Numbered from the stretch's first letter, positions 2,713 through 16,912 are shown. The stretch: 38,046 bases of DNA from an uncultured archaeon (GCA_964583985.1 CAZOYD010000032.1:1-38046); one strand, 5' to 3'. The notes: generated from the sequence alone by a model not told the origin. A program made the numbers and translations.

Positions 2713-5118
2713 TTATTTCTCTAAGAAAAGAACTAAATCTTTTTGAAGAGATTTTCTATTTACTTTAGATTTCAATAATTCCTCAAGTTCAGGAAATTCA
2801 AAGGGGAACAAGTTTTCAAACGATCGCCTGAGAAGCTCTACATATTTTTTCTTATCATAGTGATGACGTTTCTCGTCATATAAATCAGAAAGAATGATTT
2901 TTTGTTCGGGAAAACGTGGATCTGCATCTGCATTCAAAATAATATAAAAAACATTCTTTCCTGGGGTTGCCATTATTCCTGATCGTTCCAATTGCCTGGC
3001 TGCAACTGCTTGGTAAGAGTTCACTTTGTACTGGCTTGGTTTTCGTGAGATTCGTTGTTTGATTGTTAGTTCTTCCTTTGATATGTTTCCTGTTTCGATC
3101 TTATTGACATAATGGAGTAGTAATTTTTTTGCTTCTGGTATTCGATTTTTGAACTCTTCAACCGTTTTAGCACCTTTAAAAATATTAATAAAAGCATATT
3201 GGGCATTTTTGATGATCGTAGGAATGTCTCGCCTCCTGACTTCAATCCCTCGGACTTTAATTTCTCCATCGCTCTTTATACCCCAATAATGGCTTAATGC
3301 GGGAACATCTGGTTCTGCTCTCGAGGGAAGAAATAGTATCGTATCAAATCTACCATCCCAACTCATGTGAATGCTGGTTTGTGCTGTGATATCTTCTGCT
3401 ATCTTTTTAGTCACTTCTTCGAATTCTTCGGAAGATCTACCCTTAGTATCTTGAAGCCACATTGAATCCACGATTCCATGAATGATCTTACATCCATTTT
3501 CTTGGGCAATTTCAGCAGCATGCATGAGAAAATCTCGAGAAAAGGCACAAACAGTTTGATGAGCTTCAATCTTGCCAAATCGAGCATTTTTAAATCCTAA
3601 GTAGCCAAAACTTACTACAAGAACCCACTTTAATGCTGTATCGACAAAATGATATCGAATACTATTGGTTTTTCTAACGTGTTCCTTACATTTCAATCTT
3701 TTTGTTAATGGCAAGCTGATTGCTTTGGAAATAATTCCTTGTCGCTTAGAGCAAATGTGAAAATCGAGACCTGGGACTTTAATTCCTGTACCATCATCCT
3801 TGCAACACGTGCAATTGACAGTTTCGGAAGAAACGTTAAAATTTGCCATGATAGAAGGATACATGGAGGAAAAATCTAATTCAACCACTTGATCGAAGAC
3901 ACCAATTAATGGTTCGAAGATATGTCCTCCACGATCACCTCTAATTAAATCCATTCCTGATCGAAACTCTTCAGGACTTTTTTTGAATGGAGGAATCAAA
4001 TGGTCAAGCTTGTATGCATAATAAAATTGAATTGATTGTAAAGCGCCACCAATAGTTATCCTGCTCAATCTTTGTAACGGGACTCTCGAAATTCGAGCAA
4101 CTTCAATGACTCCAGGAATATTGCCTTCAGTGAAGTGAAGACTTGCATATGAAGTGGTATCAAGATGAAATCTACCAGTGAAATAGACTTGATTTTTTGA
4201 ACGTCGCCGTATGATTCCATAAGACATGTAATGATCTGAACCTCCGGAAAGGTTGAAAATACAATCCTTTAAAGGTGTTTTATTTCGAGAGAAATATACT
4301 TGTTTTGAAACTCCATTTGCCGAAGCTCGCTCAGCTAAATAAGGAAACATGAAATCATCTCCTTTTTGGGTAAGGATGATGTCTGGATCAATTTGTTCAA
4401 CCATCTTACTGATTGCAATCAACGTTTCGGCCTCATCCGCATGATCAATTCGAATGGTTTGCTGTTTATATCCATCAGCTCGAGGGACGTTATCTTCGTC
4501 GTTTTCTACAATGCTAATTTCTGCATAAGCAAGAGGATCATTATAATATGATCTCATACCTCGCTGTTGTACCTTTACATCCAGCCATATTGCTTTAAGA
4601 GGAGGCAATTCGTAAAAGAGTTTTTCATTATCATCATTAAGTACAAAAGAGACGAGATGTATTCTTTGTTTTGCTTTTTCTTTTTTAATCTTTACTTTAA
4701 ATTGGCAACGAGATATTGGAAATAAATCATTCACGTAGTAATACATCTGGGATATGGGAAGATCAGTGTTGTACAATGTAAATATATCTAATTTATTAAT
4801 TTCTTCAATTGTTGCTTTAAATACCGACGGTTTTGCAACAGATACCCCCAAAACATTTGTTTTCACATAATCCTCAAGTTTTACATATTTTTCGCAAGAC
4901 CTTACCTTTTTTACGTTCGTATTTTGCATTAAAATGCCTTTTAATTGATCTAAAGTATAACCAGAACTTTTTTTGGGAACTGCAAAAAATTCAGGATGAA
5001 ATTCAGAATAAATCTTGACTATTTTTTCATCGTTTATCGTTTTAACCCAAAAAATAACGCCATTTGCATGCGTCGAAACATCCAGCAACCAGCCATCAAA
5101 ATTCTCTATCTCTTCCAC
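2713..5118 (-). CDS. polB2: Family B DNA polymerase, archaeal PolB2 (Dpo2) group
   Basis: Motif A LDFSSMYPSIM; motif B KWVLVVSFGYLG; motif C HGIVDSMWL in place of YGDTDS; degenerate exonuclease motifs (LDVKV, KGDDFMFPYL); Cys cluster ETVNCTCC...HIC; KVRGIEVRRRD; GTG start. Confidence 0.92.
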   Translation of the reverse strand: MEEIENFDGWLLDVSTHANGVIFWVKTINDEKIVKIYSEFHPEFFAVPKKSSGYTLDQLKGILMQNTNVKKVRSCEKYVKLEDYVKTNVLGVSVAKPSVFKATIEEINKLDIFTLYNTDLPISQMYYYVNDLFPISRCQFKVKIKKEKAKQRIHLVSFVLNDDNEKLFYELPPLKAIWLDVKVQQRGMRSYYNDPLAYAEISIVENDEDNVPRADGYKQQTIRIDHADEAETLIAISKMVEQIDPDIILTQKGDDFMFPYLAERASANGVSKQVYFSRNKTPLKDCIFNLSGGSDHYMSYGIIRRRSKNQVYFTGRFHLDTTSYASLHFTEGNIPGVIEVARISRVPLQRLSRITIGGALQSIQFYYAYKLDHLIPPFKKSPEEFRSGMDLIRGDRGGHIFEPLIGVFDQVVELDFSSMYPSIMANFNVSSETVNCTCCKDDGTGIKVPGLDFHICSKRQGIISKAISLPLTKRLKCKEHVRKTNSIRYHFVDTALKWVLVVSFGYLGFKNARFGKIEAHQTVCAFSRDFLMHAAEIAQENGCKIIHGIVDSMWLQDTKGRSSEEFEEVTKKIAEDITAQTSIHMSWDGRFDTILFLPSRAEPDVPALSHYWGIKSDGEIKVRGIEVRRRDIPTIIKNAQYAFINIFKGAKTVEEFKNRIPEAKKLLLHYVNKIETGNISKEELTIKQRISRKPSQYKVNSYQAVAARQLERSGIMATPGKNVFYIILNADADPRFPEQKIILSDLYDEKRHHYDKKKYVELLRRSFENLFPFEFPELEELLKSKVNRKSLQKDLVLFLEK

Positions 5119-5121
5119 TTT

Positions 5122-5397
5122 TCAGTCTTTCCCATTTAATCTTTTCTCGAGTTCTTCAATTCTTTTTTCCAATTTTTCGGTTTTTTTTTCTTGTTCGACT
5201 GCAAACGAGATAAACAATACTTCAGAAAGCATGACACGTGATCCCATGCTACCCGCATCAGAATGAATACGAGCATAATTCATTAGCCTATCAAAGATCT
5301 TCTGCTCATCAGGACGAAGTGCTCTCTTGAAATCTTTCCAGCTTTCTATTTCATGTTCCAGTGCAGGACGAAAACTTGGAACGGTTCTACCACACAT
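5122..5397 (-). CDS. Small helical PolB2-associated protein (arCOG07300-like)
   Basis: GRTVPSFR...WKDFKRALRPDEQKIFDRLM...A signature of the small gene that typically precedes polB2; ends 3 nt before the polB2 start; C-terminal coiled coil. Confidence 0.8.
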   Translation of the reverse strand: MCGRTVPSFRPALEHEIESWKDFKRALRPDEQKIFDRLMNYARIHSDAGSMGSRVMLSEVLFISFAVEQEKKTEKLEKRIEELEKRLNGKD

Positions 5398-5558
5398 GAT
5401 ACAAATTCATCTCTTCAATTCAAATATATAACCCAGAAGGATAGTCTCTCAATCAATTAAAAAGAACACGCATTGAAAATTTTCTAATTTTTATCATTAA
5501 CCTACAAATAAAAGAGATATATAGATCTTCGATCTTAATAAAGTTATATTCAAGATAA

Positions 5559-6533
5559 ATGAGAAAAATGGAATATAAGATAATTGATTCTCTTAGTTAT
5601 TTACCAACTGAAGAAGTATATATCGATCAATTAGTTTCTTTACCGCCTCAAATGTCTCGATATTTAAAAGATATTTTTGGTCCTAGAGTTGCTCCATTGT
5701 TAGGTATGACAGCAGAAGAACTCTATAATATGAAAGCGACATTAAGTACAGCAGAATTAAAAGAAGCTATTAAACCATTTCTGCCTAAAATAAGGAAACT
5801 AACAACTTCAGTTGAAGATTTTGTTCAGAAGCTTGATAATATGGGAGTTGAGAAAGCAGTTATTTTTAATCTTGATGAAGAAACTCCAAGTGGTATTTCA
5901 GGTCTTCCAAATGATTATTATGCTGATATAGTACACAAATACCCCGATAAATTTATAGGAATTGCTGGAATTGATCCCTTAAAGGGAATGGAGGCTGTAA
6001 GAGAAATTAGAAGGTCTTATGAATTAGGGATGCGGGGAGTTGCTGTACGACCATTCATGTTTAAAATTCCCCCAACTCACGCAAAGATGTATCCGATTTA
6101 TTCAACATGTGTTGAACTTGATATCCCAATTTGGTTTCACCTTTCAGTTAATTATTCAACAAATTCAATGGAATATGAAAGACCAGTTTATCTAGATTTA
6201 GTTGCTCAAGATTTTCCTGAATTAAAAATGATTGCAGGGCACGGTGGTTGGCCTTGGGTTAATGAAATGGTTGCAGTTGCATTACGTAATCCCAACATTT
6301 ACATGGATATTGCATCTCATCTTCCTAAATATTTGGGAATGAAAGGAACGGGTTGGGAACCACTCATTCATTTTGGAAACTCTATATTGCAGGATAAAGT
6401 TTTATTCGGTTCTACGTGGTTATTTATGGGATTGTCTATTGCTCAATTGGCTGATGGTATAATGAGATTGCCGTTAAAGGAAGAAGTAAAAAGAAAATGG
6501 CTTCATGATAATGCTGCGAAACTTTTTGTATAA
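5559..6533 (+). CDS. Amidohydrolase-superfamily protein (Amidohydro_2)
   Basis: PNDYYADIV..YPDKFIGIAGIDP, MYPIYSTCVELDIPIWFH, FPELKMIAGHGGWPW and DKVLFGS. The N-terminal HxH and the final Asp appear substituted (IIDSLSY; FGSTW). Confidence 0.85.
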   Translation: MRKMEYKIIDSLSYLPTEEVYIDQLVSLPPQMSRYLKDIFGPRVAPLLGMTAEELYNMKATLSTAELKEAIKPFLPKIRKLTTSVEDFVQKLDNMGVEKAVIFNLDEETPSGISGLPNDYYADIVHKYPDKFIGIAGIDPLKGMEAVREIRRSYELGMRGVAVRPFMFKIPPTHAKMYPIYSTCVELDIPIWFHLSVNYSTNSMEYERPVYLDLVAQDFPELKMIAGHGGWPWVNEMVAVALRNPNIYMDIASHLPKYLGMKGTGWEPLIHFGNSILQDKVLFGSTWLFMGLSIAQLADGIMRLPLKEEVKRKWLHDNAAKLFV

Positions 6534-6588
6534 TAATTAAATTAAAATTAACACTAAATTTACTAATTAGCATTAAATATATCAAAAA

Positions 6589-7029
6589 ATGAGTAATAGG
6601 TATTGCTTTATGAGCATGTACTTAAATGACCACGCTCCTTGTGGAATTTATTGTAAAAGATGTCCTGGAGTAAAAGCTTTTAATTGTCCTGGATGCCGGC
6701 AAAAAAAAGGTCAGATTTCAAAATTTCCTGTTTGTAAAACTTATGAATGCATATCTCGAAAGGGTTATAATTTTTGCCATGAATGTGATGAATTTCCATG
6801 TGAAATGCTTCAACCAATCGTTAATTTTGAGATATTTACTCCTCATAATTCAAAAGTGTATAATTCTCTGATGATCAAGAAATTGGGACTTGCTAAATGG
6901 AACCAGATCTGCGAAGAAAAATCAGACCTGTATTATAAAGGAAAGAAGATACAATACGGTGGAGATCCTCTTACTTTACAAGAAAAGAATCCGGATTTCT
7001 ATAAAAAGAAAGATATTAAAGAAGAGTAA
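6589..7029 (+). CDS. DUF3795-like Cys-rich protein
   Basis: APCGIYCKRCP...CPGCR...CKTYEC...KGYNFCHECDEFPC pattern. The true start may be a later Met. Confidence 0.8.
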   Translation: MSNRYCFMSMYLNDHAPCGIYCKRCPGVKAFNCPGCRQKKGQISKFPVCKTYECISRKGYNFCHECDEFPCEMLQPIVNFEIFTPHNSKVYNSLMIKKLGLAKWNQICEEKSDLYYKGKKIQYGGDPLTLQEKNPDFYKKKDIKEE

Positions 7030-7032
7030 AAT

Positions 7033-7785
7033 TTAGAACCAGCAATCCAAGGTCATATTTTTCATGCTGTTCCTTTTCTTGGGTTCTCGAGGTTTCCATT
7101 TCAATAAGCGTTTTTCACCCAAATAAGGATGTTGTACGAGAGTGTATTCAACAAAGTGCTCATCATCAATTATCGAAACTAAGACGTTTCCAAAATGAGA
7201 GAGAATTTTACCCCCTTTGGGTCTAAACGAGCTGAATTCATTAAGAGGCGCAGTGATGACGATTAATGGTTTAGTATTTGAAAGAATGCTTTTAATGCCA
7301 TTTATTGCCCTTAATAACTCCTCATAATTTTTCTTTTCATAACTAGGAAAGAGTGTAGTAATGCCAGATACGATGACAACTTTCACGTGCTCAAGTTTAG
7401 AAAGTTTATTTTCTAATATTTCAATGGTCTGATCCCAAGTAAAAGCTCGAGCGATCAGAATGTTTTCTAACACGATTCTTGGTGATAAGTTTTGGGAAAC
7501 TGCAAATTTGCTCACGTCATATGGATTAAAGCGATTATTCGCATCAATAAATGCAACCTTTACTCCTTCTCCTAAACCTCCATGTTCTCGAGATTTTTGC
7601 GAGATTACGGCAGTTGTTAATAGGATATTAGTAGTCTTTTTTTTATCGCCGTATAACAGATATACTAAATCTTTGTGAAACCCTTTTCCCCCTAATAATT
7701 CATCTAAAATTGGATCTCCACTAGAAATCAATGGAAGCACCTCGTTTTTTTTGTGTATTTTAAACCCTGAATCGAACGGCATCAT
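7033..7785 (-). CDS. RadA/RecA-fold protein with degenerate ATPase motifs (PolB2-associated type)
   Basis: ISSGDPILDELLGG, FIDANNRFNPYDV, VLENILIARAFTWDQ and GGKILSH match RadA. Walker A is reduced to YGDKKKTT, Walker B lacks Asp (VVIVSGI), and there is no N-terminal HhH domain. Confidence 0.85.
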   Translation of the reverse strand: MMPFDSGFKIHKKNEVLPLISSGDPILDELLGGKGFHKDLVYLLYGDKKKTTNILLTTAVISQKSREHGGLGEGVKVAFIDANNRFNPYDVSKFAVSQNLSPRIVLENILIARAFTWDQTIEILENKLSKLEHVKVVIVSGITTLFPSYEKKNYEELLRAINGIKSILSNTKPLIVITAPLNEFSSFRPKGGKILSHFGNVLVSIIDDEHFVEYTLVQHPYLGEKRLLKWKPREPKKRNSMKNMTLDCWF

Positions 7786-8071
7786 ATGATCGAACTTTTT
7801 TACAAAATAAAAGTTGGTTACTCCGACAATTTTCTGAACTTTGTGTTTATAAATGAAATATATCTGGAGATCATTTAATTTGATTTAAGCATTGTTCTTT
7901 TAAAAGAAAGAAGATTGCTTGGAGTCAGAGGGAGGAGAATGGAAGTAAAAGTGTTTTCAGTAATCATACCATTCATTAGAATGCCGACAATAATAGAATT
8001 TAGTTATTCTGAATGCATTTGATCAGCACCAAATTTTTCATTGAATATTAGATTTAAATAGGACACATAAT

Positions 8072-9221: not shown

Positions 9222-10994
9222 CTAATCTTCCATTTGTCTCAATTCTCTACGTAAAATTTTACCGATTAGGGTTTTCGGAAGTTCTTCAATTATTTCGATG
9301 ATTCGGGGATATTTATAAGGGCTAATATTTGATTTACACCATTCCATTAAATCCTCTTTGGTGATCTTGCCTTGATAGTCTTCCTTTATGGATACGTAAG
9401 CTTTAATGGTTTCGCCGGTACCTTCGGGATGGGGCACCCCAATCACGCCAACTTCTCTAATGGCATCATTTTGGTACATTAAATTTTCTACTTCCGCGGG
9501 AAAAACGCCATGACCCTTATATTTTATCATGTCGCGCTTTCGGTCTTTTATCATGACATAACCGTCCTTGTCGATGCAGCCGATATCAGCGGTATATAAC
9601 CATGTTCTTCCTTGATCGTCCTTTCTGAGAGCATATTTACTCTCCTCTTCTTTTCCTAAATATCCCGGCGTGATCTGAGGTCCATGAGCGCAAATTTCTC
9701 CAAAATATTCGGGATTGTCAGTGCTTTCATCATCAGGGCATTGAGGGATGAGCGTCTTACCATCATTTATATCAACGATTTTCACTAACGTATCGGATAA
9801 GGGAAAACCCACCGTGTTGACCTTATAATCATGGAAAGGACCACAGCATAGATTTGGACTCGTTTCACTTAACCCGTATCCTTCGATAATAAGAGCTCCT
9901 GTGATATCTTCAAATTTTCTCTTGACTTCCTCTGGTAGCGAAGCGCCTCCGCTGACACATGCTTTTAAAGTGGTTAATTCCCCTTTATATTTTACAGAGT
10001 CGGGATCTTGGTTAATTAAATTCCAGAGAGTAGGGACTCCAGGGATAAAAGTTGCTCCTTCTTTCATTAAAAGCTCCAAAATTTTCGATTTTTTCTCAGG
10101 AGGTTGGGCGAATAGGATTAATTTGTACCCAACCGAGATTCCAAGACTCATGCCCGTCGAAATGCCAAATACGTGAGCAAAAGGAACTACGAGACCAATC
10201 CCTCCCTTACCATGTAATTCTTTGGTTTCAGGTAATTGATTTTCTATCCACGTGAGTCCTTGTTCTGCGTTTGCTGACATATTAAAGTGAGTCAACATTA
10301 CACCTTTCGGGATGCCGGTAGTTCCACCTGTATAAATCAAAGTGGCAACGTCCTTTTTCGGATCAATCTTGATTTCGGGTAGTTCTATTGGGGTTCCATT
10401 TGATAGGATGTCTTGAAATCCGAAAAAGTCTACATTGCCTACTTTAGTGGGCCACTTCTTCATCCTTGGAACTTTTCCTATGGCTTTTCCCAGCACTGCC
10501 TTAATTTTAGGTAAATATTCTCCCACTCCCGTTAGAATGATATGTTTTAAAGTGGGCATTTTACTCAAATCTTTGTCATGCAGATGCTCTTCGTATAAAA
10601 CGTCAAGAATAATCAGCGCTACGCTTTCTGAGTCATTTATCTGATGCACAATCTCAACAAAACGATGGAGAGGGATGATTGGGTTGGCTGTTGCTCCAAG
10701 GCGCTGCAACGCATAAAATGCGATAACAAATTGAGGGACATTAGGTAAATCGATTCCAACAATGTCTCCTTTTTTAATACCTAATTTTGAGAATCCTGTT
10801 GCAAATTGATCTACTAACCCATCCAATTCTTCATAAGTTAGTCGAATACCTTCAAAAAAAATAGCTTGCGAATTAGGATATTGCTTAGTAACATTTCGAA
10901 GGATATCGCCTAAGGCGATTTCTTTATAATCAATATGTTTGGGTACATTTTCAGGCCAGAATTTGTACCATGGAGTAGGGATTTCATCATTCAT
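9222..10994 (-). CDS. fadD: Long-chain fatty acid-CoA ligase (AMP-binding)
   Basis: YTGGTTGIPKG, EGYGLSETSP, LYTADIG, DRKRDMI and PKTLIGK. Confidence 0.9.
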   Translation of the reverse strand: MNDEIPTPWYKFWPENVPKHIDYKEIALGDILRNVTKQYPNSQAIFFEGIRLTYEELDGLVDQFATGFSKLGIKKGDIVGIDLPNVPQFVIAFYALQRLGATANPIIPLHRFVEIVHQINDSESVALIILDVLYEEHLHDKDLSKMPTLKHIILTGVGEYLPKIKAVLGKAIGKVPRMKKWPTKVGNVDFFGFQDILSNGTPIELPEIKIDPKKDVATLIYTGGTTGIPKGVMLTHFNMSANAEQGLTWIENQLPETKELHGKGGIGLVVPFAHVFGISTGMSLGISVGYKLILFAQPPEKKSKILELLMKEGATFIPGVPTLWNLINQDPDSVKYKGELTTLKACVSGGASLPEEVKRKFEDITGALIIEGYGLSETSPNLCCGPFHDYKVNTVGFPLSDTLVKIVDINDGKTLIPQCPDDESTDNPEYFGEICAHGPQITPGYLGKEEESKYALRKDDQGRTWLYTADIGCIDKDGYVMIKDRKRDMIKYKGHGVFPAEVENLMYQNDAIREVGVIGVPHPEGTGETIKAYVSIKEDYQGKITKEDLMEWCKSNISPYKYPRIIEIIEELPKTLIGKILRRELRQMED

Positions 10995-11266
10995 TTTTTT
11001 TACCTTCTTTTTTTCAGTATAAATAATCTATATTGTTTTGAATAAGTATTTAAAAGTTATTTGTAAAAGAGCGAATTATCAAAATCTAAGAAGATATAAA
11101 ATTTCTTTTTTGTATTCTTTATCAATTATTTATTCTTATTTCGATTCGATATAAGATCAAAATATTCAATATCCATTTTCATATTAAAACTTTATAACTA
11201 ATTCCATCAATTATATTACTTAACATATTATTTAATCCAAATAAAAAAATTGAAAATGATTTAAAA

Positions 11267-12979
11267 ATGACAAGTCCTTATGAAAATCGGTTCTGGATGA
11301 AAAATTGGGATCCAGATGTAAAAGATCTTGATCCTAAGGAGTTTGAAACCACGTATCCTGAAATGTTAAGAAAAGTATTCGATAAATATCCAGATCTCAT
11401 GGCCCTTTCGTATCAAGGTTTAGAAATCACATTTAATCAAGTAGATAAGTATTCTAATCAATTTGCAAACATGCTTATTAAAAATGGGTTTAAGAAAGGG
11501 GATGCCGTTGGAATTAATTTAGCCAATATTCCAGAGTATGTATATTCAGTTGTGGGTACGCTCAAAGCAGGGTGCATTGTTTCAGGAGTAAGTCCTTTAA
11601 TGTCTGACATTCAAATGCAATATCAATTGGACGATCTTGGAAAGGGAGGGAAGCAAGTCGCATTGGTAACACTTGATGCTATTTTCGAGCATCGATTGAA
11701 AAAGATAGCACCTACATTACCTCAACTTAAAATCGTGGTCGTAACAAGCGTTATAGGTTCATTTCCAAAAGAGCAACAAGAAAAAATTAAAGCCGTACAA
11801 GATATTCCTTCTGGAGAAGTCACTCCTCTTGAGGGGAAAATAGTATACAATTTTCAAGACGATGTTTTGAAAAAATTTTCTGATGAAATACCTAAAGTGG
11901 ATGTTTCTCCAGATGATATTGGTTGGATTCAATATACCGGGGGAACAACAGGACCACCTAAGGGTGCGATGCTTACCCATAGGAACTGCGTATCAAACAT
12001 AAAATGTATCCGAGCATGGCTTCAATGGAAAGAAGGAGACGGAATGCTTCTCTCAGGTTTCCCAATGTTTCATATCGCAGGTTTAACGGTAGCTGAAAGT
12101 GCCGTTGCCTTAGGATGGGGACAAATCCTTATAGCTAATCCTAGAGATGCATTACACATATGTAATCAGATAAAAACATACAATCCTACCGTTCTCGTAA
12201 ATGTTCCATCATTATATCAAATTTTAATTAATTTTAAGAAATTCAAACGATTAGATCATAGTAAATTAAGAATGTGTATTTCTGCAGCCTCTCCATTTCC
12301 AAAAGAGTCTCAAGAAAAACTTGAGGAGATAATCGGCAAAGGAAGATTACTCGAACTCTATGGAATGACAGAATTATCGCCTGTTGCAACAATGAACCCT
12401 TCGATTGGCAAGAAAATACTGGGAAAAGTTGGATTACCAATTCAAAATGTCAAATTGAAAATAGTTGATTCGGACACGGGTGAAGAAGTACCATTGGGAG
12501 AACCTGGTGAAATCTGCGTTGCTGGACCATTAGTTATGCAAGGATATTACAATAAGCCTGAAGAAACAGCGAAAGCAGTAGATAAAAATGGGTACATGCA
12601 TACCGGTGATGTGGGATTAATGGATGAAGAAGGTTATGTCCAGATTGTTGATCGAACAAAAGATATGATTATTGTAGGGGGATTCAAGGTCTTCAGCGCG
12701 AAGGTTGAGGATTCTCTATCCCAACATCCAGCAGTTGGCATGATCGCATTGGTTGGTGAGCCGAATCCAGATCGTCCAGGTTCTGAAATCGTAAATGCTT
12801 ACATTCAATTAGATCCCGAATTTGTATATGATGGCAATGAAGAAGCATTGAAAGAAGATATCATTAATTTTGCCAAGGAAAATTGTGCAGCCTATGAAGT
12901 TCCGAAGAAAATACACATTATGGAAGATATCCCGCTCACAGTTATTGGAAAAGTAGACAAGAAGGCTTTAAGAAAATAA
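11267..12979 (+). CDS. fadD: Long-chain fatty acid-CoA ligase (AMP-binding)
   Basis: YTGGTTGPPKG, YGMTE, MHTGDVG, DRTKDMI and PLTVIGK. Confidence 0.9.
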   Translation: MTSPYENRFWMKNWDPDVKDLDPKEFETTYPEMLRKVFDKYPDLMALSYQGLEITFNQVDKYSNQFANMLIKNGFKKGDAVGINLANIPEYVYSVVGTLKAGCIVSGVSPLMSDIQMQYQLDDLGKGGKQVALVTLDAIFEHRLKKIAPTLPQLKIVVVTSVIGSFPKEQQEKIKAVQDIPSGEVTPLEGKIVYNFQDDVLKKFSDEIPKVDVSPDDIGWIQYTGGTTGPPKGAMLTHRNCVSNIKCIRAWLQWKEGDGMLLSGFPMFHIAGLTVAESAVALGWGQILIANPRDALHICNQIKTYNPTVLVNVPSLYQILINFKKFKRLDHSKLRMCISAASPFPKESQEKLEEIIGKGRLLELYGMTELSPVATMNPSIGKKILGKVGLPIQNVKLKIVDSDTGEEVPLGEPGEICVAGPLVMQGYYNKPEETAKAVDKNGYMHTGDVGLMDEEGYVQIVDRTKDMIIVGGFKVFSAKVEDSLSQHPAVGMIALVGEPNPDRPGSEIVNAYIQLDPEFVYDGNEEALKEDIINFAKENCAAYEVPKKIHIMEDIPLTVIGKVDKKALRK

Positions 12980-13044
12980 ATTTTTATTTTTTTTATTTTA
13001 TTTGATTTTAAAGTTAAATTATTTTATTGAAATCTATTTTCCCC

Positions 13045-13545
13045 TTATTTTTGTCCCAAAGTTTTACTTACTCTTGCCATGGGACATTTTTCCTTATTAG
13101 TACAATTAGGACATAATGATAAAAAAGACAAGAGGAAATGAGTAAAAAATAAACCAAGTAAAATTAGAACAATAATCAAAAGAGTATCATTCCAATATAA
13201 AATTATTAGAGAAATAAATCCTAAACAATAATATAATAAGCCAAATATCCCTACTAAAATTGCACTTATTGCTATCGTTTTTTTGCTATATTCATTTTTT
13301 TTAAATACAATTTTTGATAAAAAGGGCATAAAATATAGTTGTAAAACTCCAGGACACACTTTATTTTGAAAAGGACATTGTGAACAAATAATTCCACCAG
13401 AAAAATTTGTTATTATCCAAAATGAAATGAATAAAACTAAAATTACAATCGATCTCAATGCTAATAAAATGATAATTCCCACAAAAGCAATTACAACAGA
13501 GATTGTGGAAATTAGTAACCTAAATATTAAATTTTGGGAAAACAT
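13045..13545 (-). CDS. Hypothetical membrane protein (about 4 TM) with two Cys clusters
   Basis: Hydrophobic segments; CSQCPFQNKVCP and CPNCTNKEKCP motifs. Confidence 0.7.
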   Translation of the reverse strand: MFSQNLIFRLLISTISVVIAFVGIIILLALRSIVILVLFISFWIITNFSGGIICSQCPFQNKVCPGVLQLYFMPFLSKIVFKKNEYSKKTIAISAILVGIFGLLYYCLGFISLIILYWNDTLLIIVLILLGLFFTHFLLSFLSLCPNCTNKEKCPMARVSKTLGQK

Positions 13546-13741
13546 CAGATATAATATTAAAAGAGTTAATTAATATAATTATCAAAAAAAATATTGTTTA
13601 TAAATCTTAAATTTGGAATTTCGGAAATATTAATTTCTATTTTTATAAATTTATTAATAAATTTCAGCCAAAATCAAACTTTTTATTAGAAAGAAATAAA
13701 ATATAGTATAACACGATTTTTAAAATCGTATATAATATAAC

Positions 13742-15475
13742 ATGAAATCAGTGAATAAAATGTCGTATAGTAGTAGATTTTGGAAAGAAAAATCCTATGA
13801 TAAGGGTATTGATGATCTCGATTCAAAAGAATTTGAGATCTCCTATCCCGAATTGATAAGAAGCACCTTTGAGAAATTACCCGATAAAGTCGCGATGGCA
13901 TATTATGGGACTGAAATTAATTATGCGAATTTAGATAAACTTTCAAATGAATTTGCAAACATGCTGATAGAACATAGATTCAAAAAGGGAGATGTTATCG
14001 GTGTTAATACTGCTAACATCCCTGAATATGTAATTGCAGTCCTTGGAGCTTTAAAAATTGGAATGATAGTTTCTGGCGTTTCTCCTCTCTTATCGGCTGT
14101 ACAAATTCAATATCAGTTGAATGATCTCGGATCTGGTGGCAAGCAAGTTGCCTTACTCACGCTTGATGCAGTTTTTGCAGGACACATTACCAAGATAGCT
14201 TCAAAACTACCATCACTAAAGCTTGTCATAACAACAAGCGTAGCAGGATTCATGCCAAAATTTTTAGGTATTATGGGTAAATTACTAAAAAAGATTCCTA
14301 AAGGAAAGGTTACTCCCCTTGAAGGGAAGACAGTTCTTGAATATCATAAAGATGTGAAAGGGAAATATGCTGATACTTTACCAGATATTAAATTTAATGC
14401 TGATGATATTGCCTTTATTCAATATACTGGAGGAACCACGGGTCCCCCTAAAGGAGCAATCTTAACACATCGAAACTTTGTCAGTGATGTAAAAATATTT
14501 CAACATTGGCTAAGTTGGGAATTTGGGAGTGGGACCGGATTATCTGGATTTCCATTCTTTCACATAGCAGGATTATTTACATGTGCTAACGTTCTCATGT
14601 TGGGGTACACGCAAGTATTAATACCAAATCCACGTGATACGGGTCATATTATTAAGGAAATGTTGAAATATAGACCTAACATCTTAGCAAATGTACCTAC
14701 TTTATATCAGATGCTTTTAAAAGATCCTAAATTTGCTAAAGTCGATAAAGATATGCTTGATTATGTGGTTTCCGCAGCAGCGCCGTTCCCTAAAGAATCA
14801 CAGGAAATCTTAGAAAGTATTGTAGGAGAAGGTAAGCTTTTAGAAGCCTATGGAATGACGGAGACTTCACCTTTATCTTGTGCAAATCCATCAAAAGGGA
14901 AAAAAAAATTGGGTTCAGTCGGATTGCCCTTGCCTAATGTGAACTTGAAATTAGTCGATCCAGATAGTGGTAAAGATGTACCTTTAGGTCAACCAGGAGA
15001 AATCTGCGTTAAAGGTCCAATGGTAACCACGGGTTATTATAATAAACCAGAAGAAACGAAAAAAGCCATTGATTCGGATGGTTACATGCACACTGGAGAT
15101 ATGGGCATAATGGATGAAGAGGGATATGTCCGTATAGTTGATAGAACGAAAGATATGATAATCGTCGGCGGATACAAAGTATTTTCTGTGAAAGTAGAGG
15201 ATACTCTTACCCAGCATCCTGCTATTGGAGCTGTTGCTACAATCGGTATTCCAAATCCTGATCGGCCCGGTTCTGAAATTGTAAAGGCATATATTCAAAT
15301 CGACCCGAATTTTTCGTTTGATGGAAATAAAGATGCATTAAAGGAAGATATTCTTCAATACGCGAAAGATAATTGTGCACCATATGAAGTGCCGAAAATT
15401 TTAGAATTCACGGAAGAACTTCCGCTAACTTCAGTTGGAAAAGTAGACAAAAAAGCTCTTAGAGCTTCAAAATAA
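13742..15475 (+). CDS. fadD: Long-chain fatty acid-CoA ligase (AMP-binding), paralogue of 11267..12979
   Basis: YTGGTTGPPKG, YGMTETSP, MHTGDMG and PLTSVGK. The likely start is ATG 13760 by alignment with the paralogue. Confidence 0.9.
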   Translation: MKSVNKMSYSSRFWKEKSYDKGIDDLDSKEFEISYPELIRSTFEKLPDKVAMAYYGTEINYANLDKLSNEFANMLIEHRFKKGDVIGVNTANIPEYVIAVLGALKIGMIVSGVSPLLSAVQIQYQLNDLGSGGKQVALLTLDAVFAGHITKIASKLPSLKLVITTSVAGFMPKFLGIMGKLLKKIPKGKVTPLEGKTVLEYHKDVKGKYADTLPDIKFNADDIAFIQYTGGTTGPPKGAILTHRNFVSDVKIFQHWLSWEFGSGTGLSGFPFFHIAGLFTCANVLMLGYTQVLIPNPRDTGHIIKEMLKYRPNILANVPTLYQMLLKDPKFAKVDKDMLDYVVSAAAPFPKESQEILESIVGEGKLLEAYGMTETSPLSCANPSKGKKKLGSVGLPLPNVNLKLVDPDSGKDVPLGQPGEICVKGPMVTTGYYNKPEETKKAIDSDGYMHTGDMGIMDEEGYVRIVDRTKDMIIVGGYKVFSVKVEDTLTQHPAIGAVATIGIPNPDRPGSEIVKAYIQIDPNFSFDGNKDALKEDILQYAKDNCAPYEVPKILEFTEELPLTSVGKVDKKALRASK

Positions 15476-15571
15476 TAATTTATATAAAATCCTTTCTTTT
15501 TTTTATTTTATTGGATAAAGATATCTACTTGCTAGAAAGAGTATAAAAAAAAAATTTAAAAATTCATAAAA

Positions 15572-15970
15572 TTAGCCCTTTTGTTTCATCCAGCAATAAA
15601 TGCCCAGAACGAAATATATTGCTACGAGAATAGTAGTGAGCAGTGTGTTTGTAAAAGCCATGGCGGGTAAACTTAAAAGTGCTAATTCGAATGAATTTAT
15701 TATTAGTATCATTAATAACCACATCAATGCTAACTCGAAAAATAATTTGATTTCTTCCCATTCCTTTTTAAAATATGCCATGAGGGAAGCCACTCCAAGA
15801 ACTAAAAGAGTTCCTCCAAATATTCTAAAGTAAACAGGATCATTAAAAGGCCACTGAACTAAACCGTATATATAAATATCGGGAATCACCAAATACAGAA
15901 ACACAAAAACAAAACTTGCAATAACGTCCAAAAGAATTGAAATTTTAGTTAATTTTTGAATTTCAGTCAT
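15572..15970 (-). CDS. Hypothetical 4-TM membrane protein
   Basis: Four hydrophobic helices; WPFNDPVYFRIFGG loop motif. Confidence 0.7.
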   Translation of the reverse strand: MTEIQKLTKISILLDVIASFVFVFLYLVIPDIYIYGLVQWPFNDPVYFRIFGGTLLVLGVASLMAYFKKEWEEIKLFFELALMWLLMILIINSFELALLSLPAMAFTNTLLTTILVAIYFVLGIYCWMKQKG

Positions 15971-16123
15971 TACATTATACCATTTTGTTTTAATTTTGAT
16001 TAAATTACATTAGATTTCAAATTGTAACTAAATTTACAAAAGTGTATAGTTTTTCCATATTAATAAAGATTTCTTACCTCTATTTTTTTAAAGGAAGAAG
16101 AGTCAGATCTCTTGTTAATATAC

Positions 16124-16912
16124 TCACTCCAAATTTTCAGCGACAATTTCAACGATTTTAGGCATTACGTCACCGATTTTCTCATGAATCACTATTTCTG
16201 CATGATCATCCATATCAGTTTCTTGAATGTTGATTATCACCAATTTAGCACCACAAGATAACACTTTACGGGGATAAAATGCTACAGGATAAACTAATAA
16301 AGAACTACCAAGCACGATCAATAAGTCACAATTAGAAATCATCTTATCCGCTTGCTCCAAGGTTTCTGATTGGAGGGGTTCCCCAAAAAATATTGCATTT
16401 GGTTTTAATAATCCTTGACATAGTTCACAAGAAGGACTTTTATTACTCCTAAGAACTTGATCGATCATTTTTGTAATTGGATATACAGTGTGACATCGCA
16501 TACATATTGCTTCATGGGCAGTTCCATGAAGTTCAATAACATTTTTAGTTTTTGCGCGTTTATGTAATCCATCAACGTTTTGTGTGAGTACTCCCTTGAG
16601 TTTGCCTAATTTCTGGAGTTTTGTTAAGGATTTATGCCCTTTATTGGGATTTGATTTGAATATATTCATACCCATTTCTAACATGAACTTCAGGTTTTTT
16701 CCGGTATCCGATACGTAAGAATGAATGCTTGCAAATTCATCAGGATTTACTTTTTCCCATAATCCAGTACCGGGGCTTCTAAAATCGGCTATTCCGCTCT
16801 CGGTACTCATACCCGCACCAGTTAACGCAATAATATTTTCTGAATTGATTATTAATTTGGCAATCTGTTGAATTTTATTCTCTAGATCTTCCATGTAATT
16901 ATCTCTTGTCAT
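16124..16912 (-). CDS. cobB: Sirtuin, NAD-dependent protein deacylase (Sir2 family)
   Basis: GAGMSTESGIADFRS, TQNVDGLH, ELHG, two CxxC zinc motifs, KPNAIFFGE and GSSLLVYP. Confidence 0.93.
   Translation of the reverse strand: MTRDNYMEDLENKIQQIAKLIINSENIIALTGAGMSTESGIADFRSPGTGLWEKVNPDEFASIHSYVSDTGKNLKFMLEMGMNIFKSNPNKGHKSLTKLQKLGKLKGVLTQNVDGLHKRAKTKNVIELHGTAHEAICMRCHTVYPITKMIDQVLRSNKSPSCELCQGLLKPNAIFFGEPLQSETLEQADKMISNCDLLIVLGSSLLVYPVAFYPRKVLSCGAKLVIINIQETDMDDHAEIVIHEKIGDVMPKIVEIVAENLE

Follow-up and report, generated by a model that had tools for sequence, protein, structure and literature searches.

The stretch of DNA analysed here (in the following the window: 38,046 nt of an uncultured archaeon, GCA_964583985.1, CAZOYD010000032.1:1-38046) holds at positions 2713-7785 five genes, three on the minus strand and two on the plus strand in between. 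The three minus-strand genes very probably encode the PolB2 mutasome already published for archaea, in its Lokiarchaeal form; this system consists of the family B DNA polymerase PolB2, the small helical protein PPB2 and the RadA-like protein iRadA. The close homologues as well as 80 related loci carry the names Promethearchaeota or Lokiarchaeota. The locus is a Lokiarchaeal copy (Asgard archaea; phylum Promethearchaeota, kingdom Promethearchaeati), in line with the Asgard host assumed in an initial annotation of this DNA, and it is a fresh example of a known system, not a new system. To our knowledge, the PolB2 mutasome is the only multi-subunit family B translesion polymerase known from prokaryotes, and we know of nobody who has purified the complex yet. 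The features relevant for the following are:

2713-5118, minus strand: PolB2, Dpo2-type family B polymerase, 801 aa, GTG start
2722-2745, minus strand: PolB2 tail QKDLVLFL (residues 792-799), C-terminal, resembling a PCNA-interacting protein (PIP) box
5122-5397, minus strand: PPB2 (arCOG07300), 91 aa, ending 3 nt from the PolB2 start
5455-5487, minus strand: putative PPB2-PolB2 promoter, element TTAGAAAATT followed by the TATA-like TTTTTAATT, about 58 nt upstream of the ATG
5559-6533, plus strand: amidohydrolase gene (Pfam Amidohydro_2, E 2e-35), divergent from PPB2
6589-7029, plus strand: gene for a Cys-rich DUF3795 protein (Pfam DUF3795, E 1.2e-11), convergent with iRadA
7033-7785, minus strand: iRadA, ATPase-dead RadA/Rad51 core, 250 aa, without N-terminal domain
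7036-7059, minus strand: iRadA tail NMTLDCWF (residues 243-250), PIP-like, C-terminal, preceded by a basic linker
7805-7838, minus strand: putative iRadA promoter, element TTCAGAAAATTGTCGG followed by the TATA-like CTTTTATTTTG, the element about 50 nt upstream of the ATG

The association of PolB2 with arCOG07300 and with a gene for a RadA-like protein was reported by Makarova et al. (2014, PMC4104785), who predicted the PolB2 group to be inactivated. The names PolB2, PPB2 and iRadA were given by Timinskas, Timinskas & Venclovas (2025, PMC11791011), who modelled a heteropentamer of one PolB2, one iRadA and three PPB2 for 40 operons and described the N-terminal 'MGRT' arm of PPB2. In iRadA or PolB2, "rarely in both", they noted motifs for binding PCNA, and their models put the iRadA tails of other archaea into the PCNA pocket. 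Their set includes a contiguous Lokiarchaeal operon (TET04598.1/TET04596.1/TET04597.1) which is close to the present locus; its iRadA ends with ...KNMTLDCWF, its PPB2 starts with MGRTVPAFRPALEHEIESWKDFKRALRP..., and the model of its complex reached a predicted template modelling score (pTM) of 0.875 and an interface pTM (ipTM) of 0.866. For Saccharolobus islandicus, Dpo2 was shown to be an active extender polymerase without exonuclease (PMC8764526), and dpo2 is induced through Orc1-2 (PMC6061795). The literature thus bears out what the initial annotation had stated about the co-occurrence of the three genes and about a damage-inducible Sulfolobus Dpo2 with an extender role. Its remark that the complex was not known to have been characterised is outdated, because both the complex and the clamp tails are already described in PMC11791011, if only in silico.

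The three proteins

PolB2 matches the Pfam families DNA_pol_B (E 5.6e-26) and DNA_pol_B_exo1 (E 9.7e-10), whereas its best NCBIfam model, NF004416, stays under its cut-off. Its close homologues, sharing 75-100% identity, form 120 clusters. The sequence motifs were compared by alignment to the other family B polymerase of the same genome. In Exo II, PolB2 has FM where the other polymerase has FD, and the Exo III segment is deleted; what we take to be Exo I reads D180-V-K182, a conserved string, against the DxE of family B. Motif B is KWVLVVSFG compared to KxxxNSxYG, so that its N and Y are lost, and motif C is IVD instead of DTD (HGIVDS, residues 547-552), as in the published Lokiarchaeal entries. 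The Asp of motif A is retained, and both this residue and the second Asp of motif C are invariant in the clade. Hence the motif C string and the degenerate exonuclease motifs noticed in the initial annotation are indeed present in the translation, and PolB2 belongs to family B, with its exonuclease site disrupted and the first Asp of motif C (DxD) substituted. There is no solved structure of a PolB2; the nearest ones are the PolB enzymes of Thermococcales, which match PolB2 residues 335-761 only.

The open reading frame (ORF) 5122-5397 and its AlphaFold2 (AF2) model agree with the earlier description of a 91-aa helical protein. PPB2 begins with the arm MCGRTVPSFRP, followed by helices. Its size and fold correspond to those of a PPB2 (about 90 aa, helical, MGRT arm with Arg 3 and Arg 9), except that the two arginines are found at positions 4 and 10, because one Cys is inserted. 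Among the homologues, 88 of 120 have an N-terminus of the type MGRTVPSFRPALEH and 13 start with MCGRT... In the model the arm has low confidence (residues 1-5, predicted local distance difference test (pLDDT) <50) and helices span residues 9-18, 21-26, 29-47 and 52-89, the last one being 38 residues long. The homologues carry a precomputed annotation with Pfam PF26485. When the model was compared with the PDB (Foldseek, VIA-align), only generic helical-bundle matches were found (best Z 7.9), so the published similarity of PPB2 to a sigma-factor domain is neither confirmed nor refuted. The start MCGRT (window 5383-5397, minus strand) adds a residue to an arm, MGRT, which is otherwise invariant, and it does so in this sub-clade. 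In several relatives (loci L056, L070, L072, L078, L079 and L081) the PPB2 codon before GRT encodes I, V or L and there is no nearby ATG, a pattern that suggests either unusual start codons or miscalled starts.

In iRadA, the Pfam match to Rad51 (E 2.9e-14) covers residues 19-146 only and begins at profile position 7. Alignment to the Rad51 protein of P. furiosus shows that the P-loop of Walker A is one residue shorter (GSGKT to DK-KKT, within YGDKKKTT at residues 45-52) and that the Asp of Walker B is replaced by Ser (S140, within VVIVSGI at residues 136-142). Both strings had been read as broken Walker motifs in a RadA-fold protein before, and the alignment agrees with that reading. The AF2 model (pLDDT 90.9, pTM 0.85) has RAD51, DMC1 and RadA as its top Foldseek matches (E 4e-17, template modelling score 0.80). 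Thus, iRadA is a RadA/Rad51 core which is devoid of the N-terminal domain and has lost the ATP-binding residues; separate, intact RadA genes are also encoded in the genome.

C-terminal tails

The initial annotation had described the tails of both large proteins as resembling a PIP box. For PolB2 this description fits. The residues Q792-K-D-L795-V-L-F798-L799 agree with the consensus at positions 1, 4, 7 and 8, in a definition which also asked for a disordered terminal tail; Q792 and L795 are invariant in the PolB2 alignment (A1). For iRadA it fits in part: L246, W249 and F250 occupy positions 4, 7 and 8 as expected, and position 1 is N243 instead of Q. Because of this replacement we file the iRadA tail as PIP-like and not as a canonical PIP box. 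Of the 3532 ORFs with 100 aa or more in this genome, only 23 have the pattern Qxx[LIMV]xx[FWY] plus a hydrophobic residue within their last 14 residues, several of them being known clamp clients; both tails exceed chance.

Conservation across homologues, which had been proposed as a check, is complete among the close Lokiarchaeal clusters. All 120 PolB2 clusters have Q..[LIM]..[FYW] within the last 18 residues, and all 121 iRadA clusters end with [LIM][DEN]x[WFY] plus a hydrophobic residue, in a form resembling [KR]N[MT]T[LI]D[CS]W[FL], while the preceding linker is variable. L246 of iRadA is conserved to at least 90% in the iRadA alignment (A2). More distant iRadA representatives, taken from 50%-identity clusters, keep L-[DEN]-x-aromatic-hydrophobic near the end in 37 of 54 full-length sequences; N is the commonest residue at their tail position 1 (N in 16, Q in 2, of 54). 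In the species-level loci with both tails readable, both motifs are visible by eye in 59 of 59 and by a strict pattern in 48 of 59. The AF2 model gives the iRadA tail lower confidence and a short helix at residues 246-249. The last 22-24 residues of each protein, searched against the PDB sequences for PIP peptides with a solved structure, gave no matches.

PCNA is encoded by one gene of this genome (C2:12389-13207, minus strand). The tails of clamp clients of the same organism, identified by Pfam, allow a direct comparison:

PolY (Y-family polymerase): QKDLLSYV
PolD DP2: QQKLSDFF
Fen1: QISLDSFF
DUF72, first protein (C9:75288-76094, L127, outside the window): QKKLTEYF (end KQKKLTEYF)
DUF72, second protein (C19:441-1310, L128, outside the window): QTSLKNFL (end NQTSLKNFLT)

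PolB2 QKDLVLFL matches the PolY tail, and by the standard of this organism's own clamp-client tails it is therefore a good PIP box. The iRadA tail resembles that of Fen1, minus the glutamine.

Some further proteins of the genome deserve mention in this context. DUF72 is uncharacterised and is reportedly enriched near polB2; its PIP-like tail, a putative clamp tag, would fit a role in DNA repair. A NERD nuclease-related protein of 271 aa (C28:12181-12996, L129, outside the window) ends with IQKQLSDFY and is another possible clamp client. The genome's other family B polymerase (C25:18027-20999; L120:128-3097, minus strand; 989 aa, also outside the window) has a PIP-like QKSLFSFI near its N-terminus and the C-terminal end ...KKMDDFF; with two PIP-like sites, it may therefore have two clamp contacts.

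Gene order and a common upstream element

The three minus-strand genes are all present as initially described, but the two plus-strand genes between them (5559-6533 and 6589-7029) had been overlooked. The view of the genes as one block is therefore right with respect to their linkage, which is kept in the relatives, but not with respect to iRadA, which lies 1.6 kb and two opposite-strand genes away from PPB2 and whose stop is only 3 nt from that of the DUF3795 gene. PPB2 occurs together with PolB2 in 78 of 80 related loci. In 58 out of the 60 loci holding both genes, iRadA is found upstream of PPB2 on the same strand; just 2 of these 58 have it contiguous with PPB2 (about 127 nt apart), and in the other 56 it is more than 0.5 kb from PPB2-PolB2, with gaps ranging from 0.13 to 7.1 kb overall. 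The intervening DNA includes a DUF3795 gene in 46 of 58 loci, every time on the opposite strand, and an amidohydrolase gene in 27 of 58. Thus, the PolB2 "operon" in this clade normally comprises two transcription units. Since the flanking genes are also fairly syntenic (38-50 of 80 loci), DUF3795 may either be functionally tied to the system or share its neighbourhood by synteny only; the amidohydrolase gene is an intervening gene and at most a possible member of the PolB2 system.

Upstream of iRadA the sequence TT[CT]AGAAAATTGTCGG is located about 50 nt before the ATG, with TTTTATTTTG about 9 nt further on. This element is near-invariant in 55 of 56 species-level loci and far better conserved than its variable flanks across species whose proteins share 60-93% identity. 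Upstream of PPB2 we found AAAT[CT]AGAAAATT, followed by TTTTTAAT at equal spacing. Under a position weight matrix the iRadA element is the best-scoring site of the genome. The arrangement [CT]AGAAAA[CT]T-N14-19-TATA-like box close before an ORF occurs three times in the genome, in front of iRadA, of PPB2 and of a gene for a HerA-family helicase (C1:76177-77703, Pfam DUF87, E 7.8e-28; element region C1:77704-77760). For a count among orthologues, the core 8-mer T[CT]AG[AT]AA[AT] was searched from -130 to -35 of the start codon, with the following result:

iRadA upstream regions: 49/56 (88%)
PPB2 upstream regions: 66/79 (84%)
herA-like orthologue upstream regions: 25/29 (86%)
PolY orthologue upstream regions: 1/28 (4%)
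upstream regions of ORFs with 200 aa or more in this genome: 143/2294 (6%)

The element is thus about 14-fold enriched over the upstream background of the genome. This is good comparative evidence and suggests a common regulator for the iRadA unit, the PPB2-PolB2 unit and the herA-like gene; the YAGAAAATT with its TATA-like box common to the three makes them a candidate regulon. Promoters of Y-family polymerases were considered as further members and rejected, as the 1 of 28 with the element corresponds to the background level.

In Sulfolobus, Orc1-2 binds the damage-response element AATAGTTTCRGWDTACTCWS and controls dpo2 as well (PMC6061795). Read as its reverse complement, the element found here is ATTTTCTGA, which is similar to the core of the Sulfolobus element and can be compared with AGTTTCRGW in the Sulfolobus consensus; in its forward direction it contains GAAAAT, which corresponds to ANTTTC on the complementary strand. 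Because the match is short, we treat this likeness as a lead only. Four Orc1/Cdc6 paralogues are present in the genome.

With a strict matrix of the iRadA type applied to the whole genome, the better matches other than iRadA were located inside coding sequence or had no TATA-like box (at C5:29703 the match is formed by the opposite strand of a gene's first codons), and a relaxed pattern gave 50 matches compared to about 22 in shuffled sequence, which is too noisy. When all upstream regions were scanned with the matrix, iRadA and PPB2 ranked first and second, and the rest of the top 30 showed no visible repair regulon.

Beside the PolB2 system, no Orc1/Cdc6, SRAP or DUF72 gene was found within the window. 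Its neighbours there code for a TrmB-like regulator, a GyrI-like protein, a methyltransferase, a metallo-beta-lactamase, three AMP-binding ligases and a Sir2 protein. The three AMP-binding, acyl-CoA synthetase-like paralogues (9222-10994, minus strand; 11267-12979 and 13742-15475, both plus strand) are adjoined by the gene for the Sir2-family deacetylase (16124-16912, minus strand; together window 9222-16912), a pairing reminiscent of the acetylation control of such enzymes.

Possible mode of action and relation to known systems

The proposal in the initial annotation of a clamp-bound translesion complex, in which PolB2 would act with a helical partner and a dead RadA as adaptor, is partly supported: motifs, families and tails fit, as do all data obtained here, while the idea itself was already in print. 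Judged from the published relatives, PolB2 would be an active polymerase without proofreading that extends mismatched or lesion-paired primer ends, and it would assemble with one iRadA and a trimer of PPB2. The sequences analysed here add that this complex may be tethered to the single homotrimeric PCNA through QKDLVLFL of PolB2, with a second contact probably made by NMTLDCWF of iRadA, and that iRadA and PPB2-PolB2, although transcribed apart, may be switched on together via the shared YAGAAAATT, plausibly following DNA damage. Taken jointly, the Lokiarchaeal mutasome would be a bivalent clamp client whose PolB2 and iRadA tails occupy two of the three PCNA sites, and its two units would form, together with the HerA-like gene, a damage regulon controlled via a YAGAAAATT related to the Orc1-2-read element of Sulfolobus. 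We put this conjunction forward only tentatively; if it were true, such a damage switch would be ancestral to the archaeal relatives of eukaryotes. Several observations weigh against the overall reading of the locus given here. iRadA is a transcription unit of its own, not co-transcribed with PPB2-PolB2 here, and the likeness of its promoter element to that of Sulfolobus involves about nine bases. The candidate site for contact with iRadA on PolB2, F385-x-x-G388 plus D395-R396 (loop PEEF385-RSG ... D395-R396, with F385, D395 and R396 invariant in alignment A1), was placed by sequence alone. None of the confirmed clamp clients of this genome has N at PIP position 1, the columns for clamp motifs are empty for both proteins of the closest Lokiarchaeal operon in the hidden Markov model screen of PMC11791011, and the single Lokiarchaeal model with PCNA in that study reached an ipTM of only 0.58.

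The last two points also bear on the question whether the iRadA tail (NxTLDxW[FL]) docks another partner than PCNA, such as another face of the PolB2 complex, the active RadA or some other repair factor, so that PolB2 alone contacts the clamp. This would moreover agree with the scarcity of Q at position 1 in the distant representatives, and the N-type pattern otherwise matches unrelated-looking proteins in this genome. Nevertheless we consider it unlikely, as the tail stands at the extreme C-terminus behind a variable basic linker, its L-x-x-aromatic-hydrophobic spacing is that of a PIP box, and it is very similar to the end of Fen1. Bound PIP peptides form a short helix, and a short helix is what the AF2 model gives to the tail; furthermore, in published models the PCNA pocket is occupied by iRadA tails from other archaea (PMC11791011). 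More weight should be given to the reading that the shared element is not a damage site at all but serves another regulator, for instance one of the cell cycle or growth phase, or sets promoter strength in a lineage-specific manner. This is quite conceivable, even if we do not expect it: the similarity to ANTTTC is short, relative to the gene the element lies on the opposite strand, promoters of Y-family polymerases have the element no more often than the background, the genome-wide scan did not yield a clear repair regulon and the window has no Orc1/Cdc6 gene. On the other hand, a conservation far above that of the flanks, the roughly 14-fold enrichment, the recurrence at a HerA-like helicase gene and the four Orc1/Cdc6 paralogues speak for a damage switch, as does the damage induction of Sulfolobus dpo2 via a promoter element read by Orc1-2 (PMC6061795).

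Doubts may also be raised about the two large proteins themselves. PolB2 could have lost catalysis and serve, as a pseudo-polymerase, a structural or regulatory purpose; this was the first proposal for the entire PolB2 group (PMC4104785), and the IVD of motif C and the missing N and Y of motif B fit that 2014 prediction of inactivation. This appears improbable in view of the robust in vitro polymerase activity of S. islandicus Dpo2, which has a similar substitution (IID; PMC8764526), and of the two aspartates in motifs A and C that the clade keeps invariant. That the RadA-like gene is an independent RadA paralogue, located nearby by chance and outside the polymerase system, could be argued from its own promoter and from the 1.6 kb and two opposite-strand genes that separate it from PPB2. 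We find this hardly credible: in 58 of 60 related loci the gene keeps its place, upstream and on the same strand, although the inserts vary from 0.13 to 7.1 kb, it has its promoter element in common with PPB2, intact RadA genes exist separately in the genome, and the published model of the complex with its orthologue is of high confidence (PMC11791011).

The Lokiarchaeal copy alone adds little to what has been published. The data from the whole clade, however, sharpen three points. A clamp-type tail, missed by the published screen, is kept on each of the two large subunits, and because the columns for the close operon are empty there, the clade-wide presence of both tails is a small addition to PMC11791011. 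The "operon" is really two units, and these share a strongly conserved promoter element, which provides a handle for finding the Asgard damage-response regulator.

In comparison with the PolB2 mutasome as published, the system described here likewise has a lost exonuclease, IVD in motif C, the MGRT arm, lost Walker A and B motifs, no RadA N-terminal domain and C-terminal clamp-type tails, and a close Lokiarchaeal orthologue belongs to the published model set. It differs in that iRadA is split off by an opposite-strand cassette of DUF3795, often with the amidohydrolase; such a split is rare according to PMC11791011 and the rule in the present clade. Conserved tails on both proteins, infrequent in that study, are found here, and the PPB2 arm has one extra residue (MCGRT). 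With Dpo2 of Sulfolobus (now Saccharolobus) islandicus (PMC8764526, PMC7390963, PMC6061795) it shares the polymerase group, an IxD motif C and the lack of proofreading, as well as the ANTTTC complement GAAAAT in the candidate promoter element. In contrast to Dpo2, the Lokiarchaeal PolB2, with about 800 aa, has a much fuller N-terminal and exonuclease region, and the candidate element is longer than that of Sulfolobus (YAGAAAATT, extended by GTCGG at iRadA) and located on the other strand, with no Orc1/Cdc6 gene adjacent.

The Pol V mutasome of E. coli (UmuD'2C-RecA-ATP) is similar in outline: a translesion polymerase together with one protomer of the RecA/Rad51 family on the sliding clamp, and a small oligomeric subunit with an N-terminal arm reaching the active site. 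Its catalytic subunit, however, belongs to family Y and not to family B, its RecA is a borrowed active recombinase whereas iRadA is a dedicated dead paralogue, and its clamp motif is on UmuC only. In the bacterial ImuA-ImuB-DnaE2 system, an inactive RecA-like protein is again accessory to an error-prone polymerase, but this polymerase is of family C, ImuB, its adaptor bearing the clamp motif, is a dead polymerase of family Y, and the small subunits are without homology to those of the PolB2 mutasome. Finally, although the accessory subunits of the eukaryotic Pol zeta (Rev3-Rev7x2-Pol31-Pol32) are unrelated and include no member of the RecA family, this enzyme, too, is a damage-linked, proofreading-less family B extender organized as a heteropentamer (PMC11791011).

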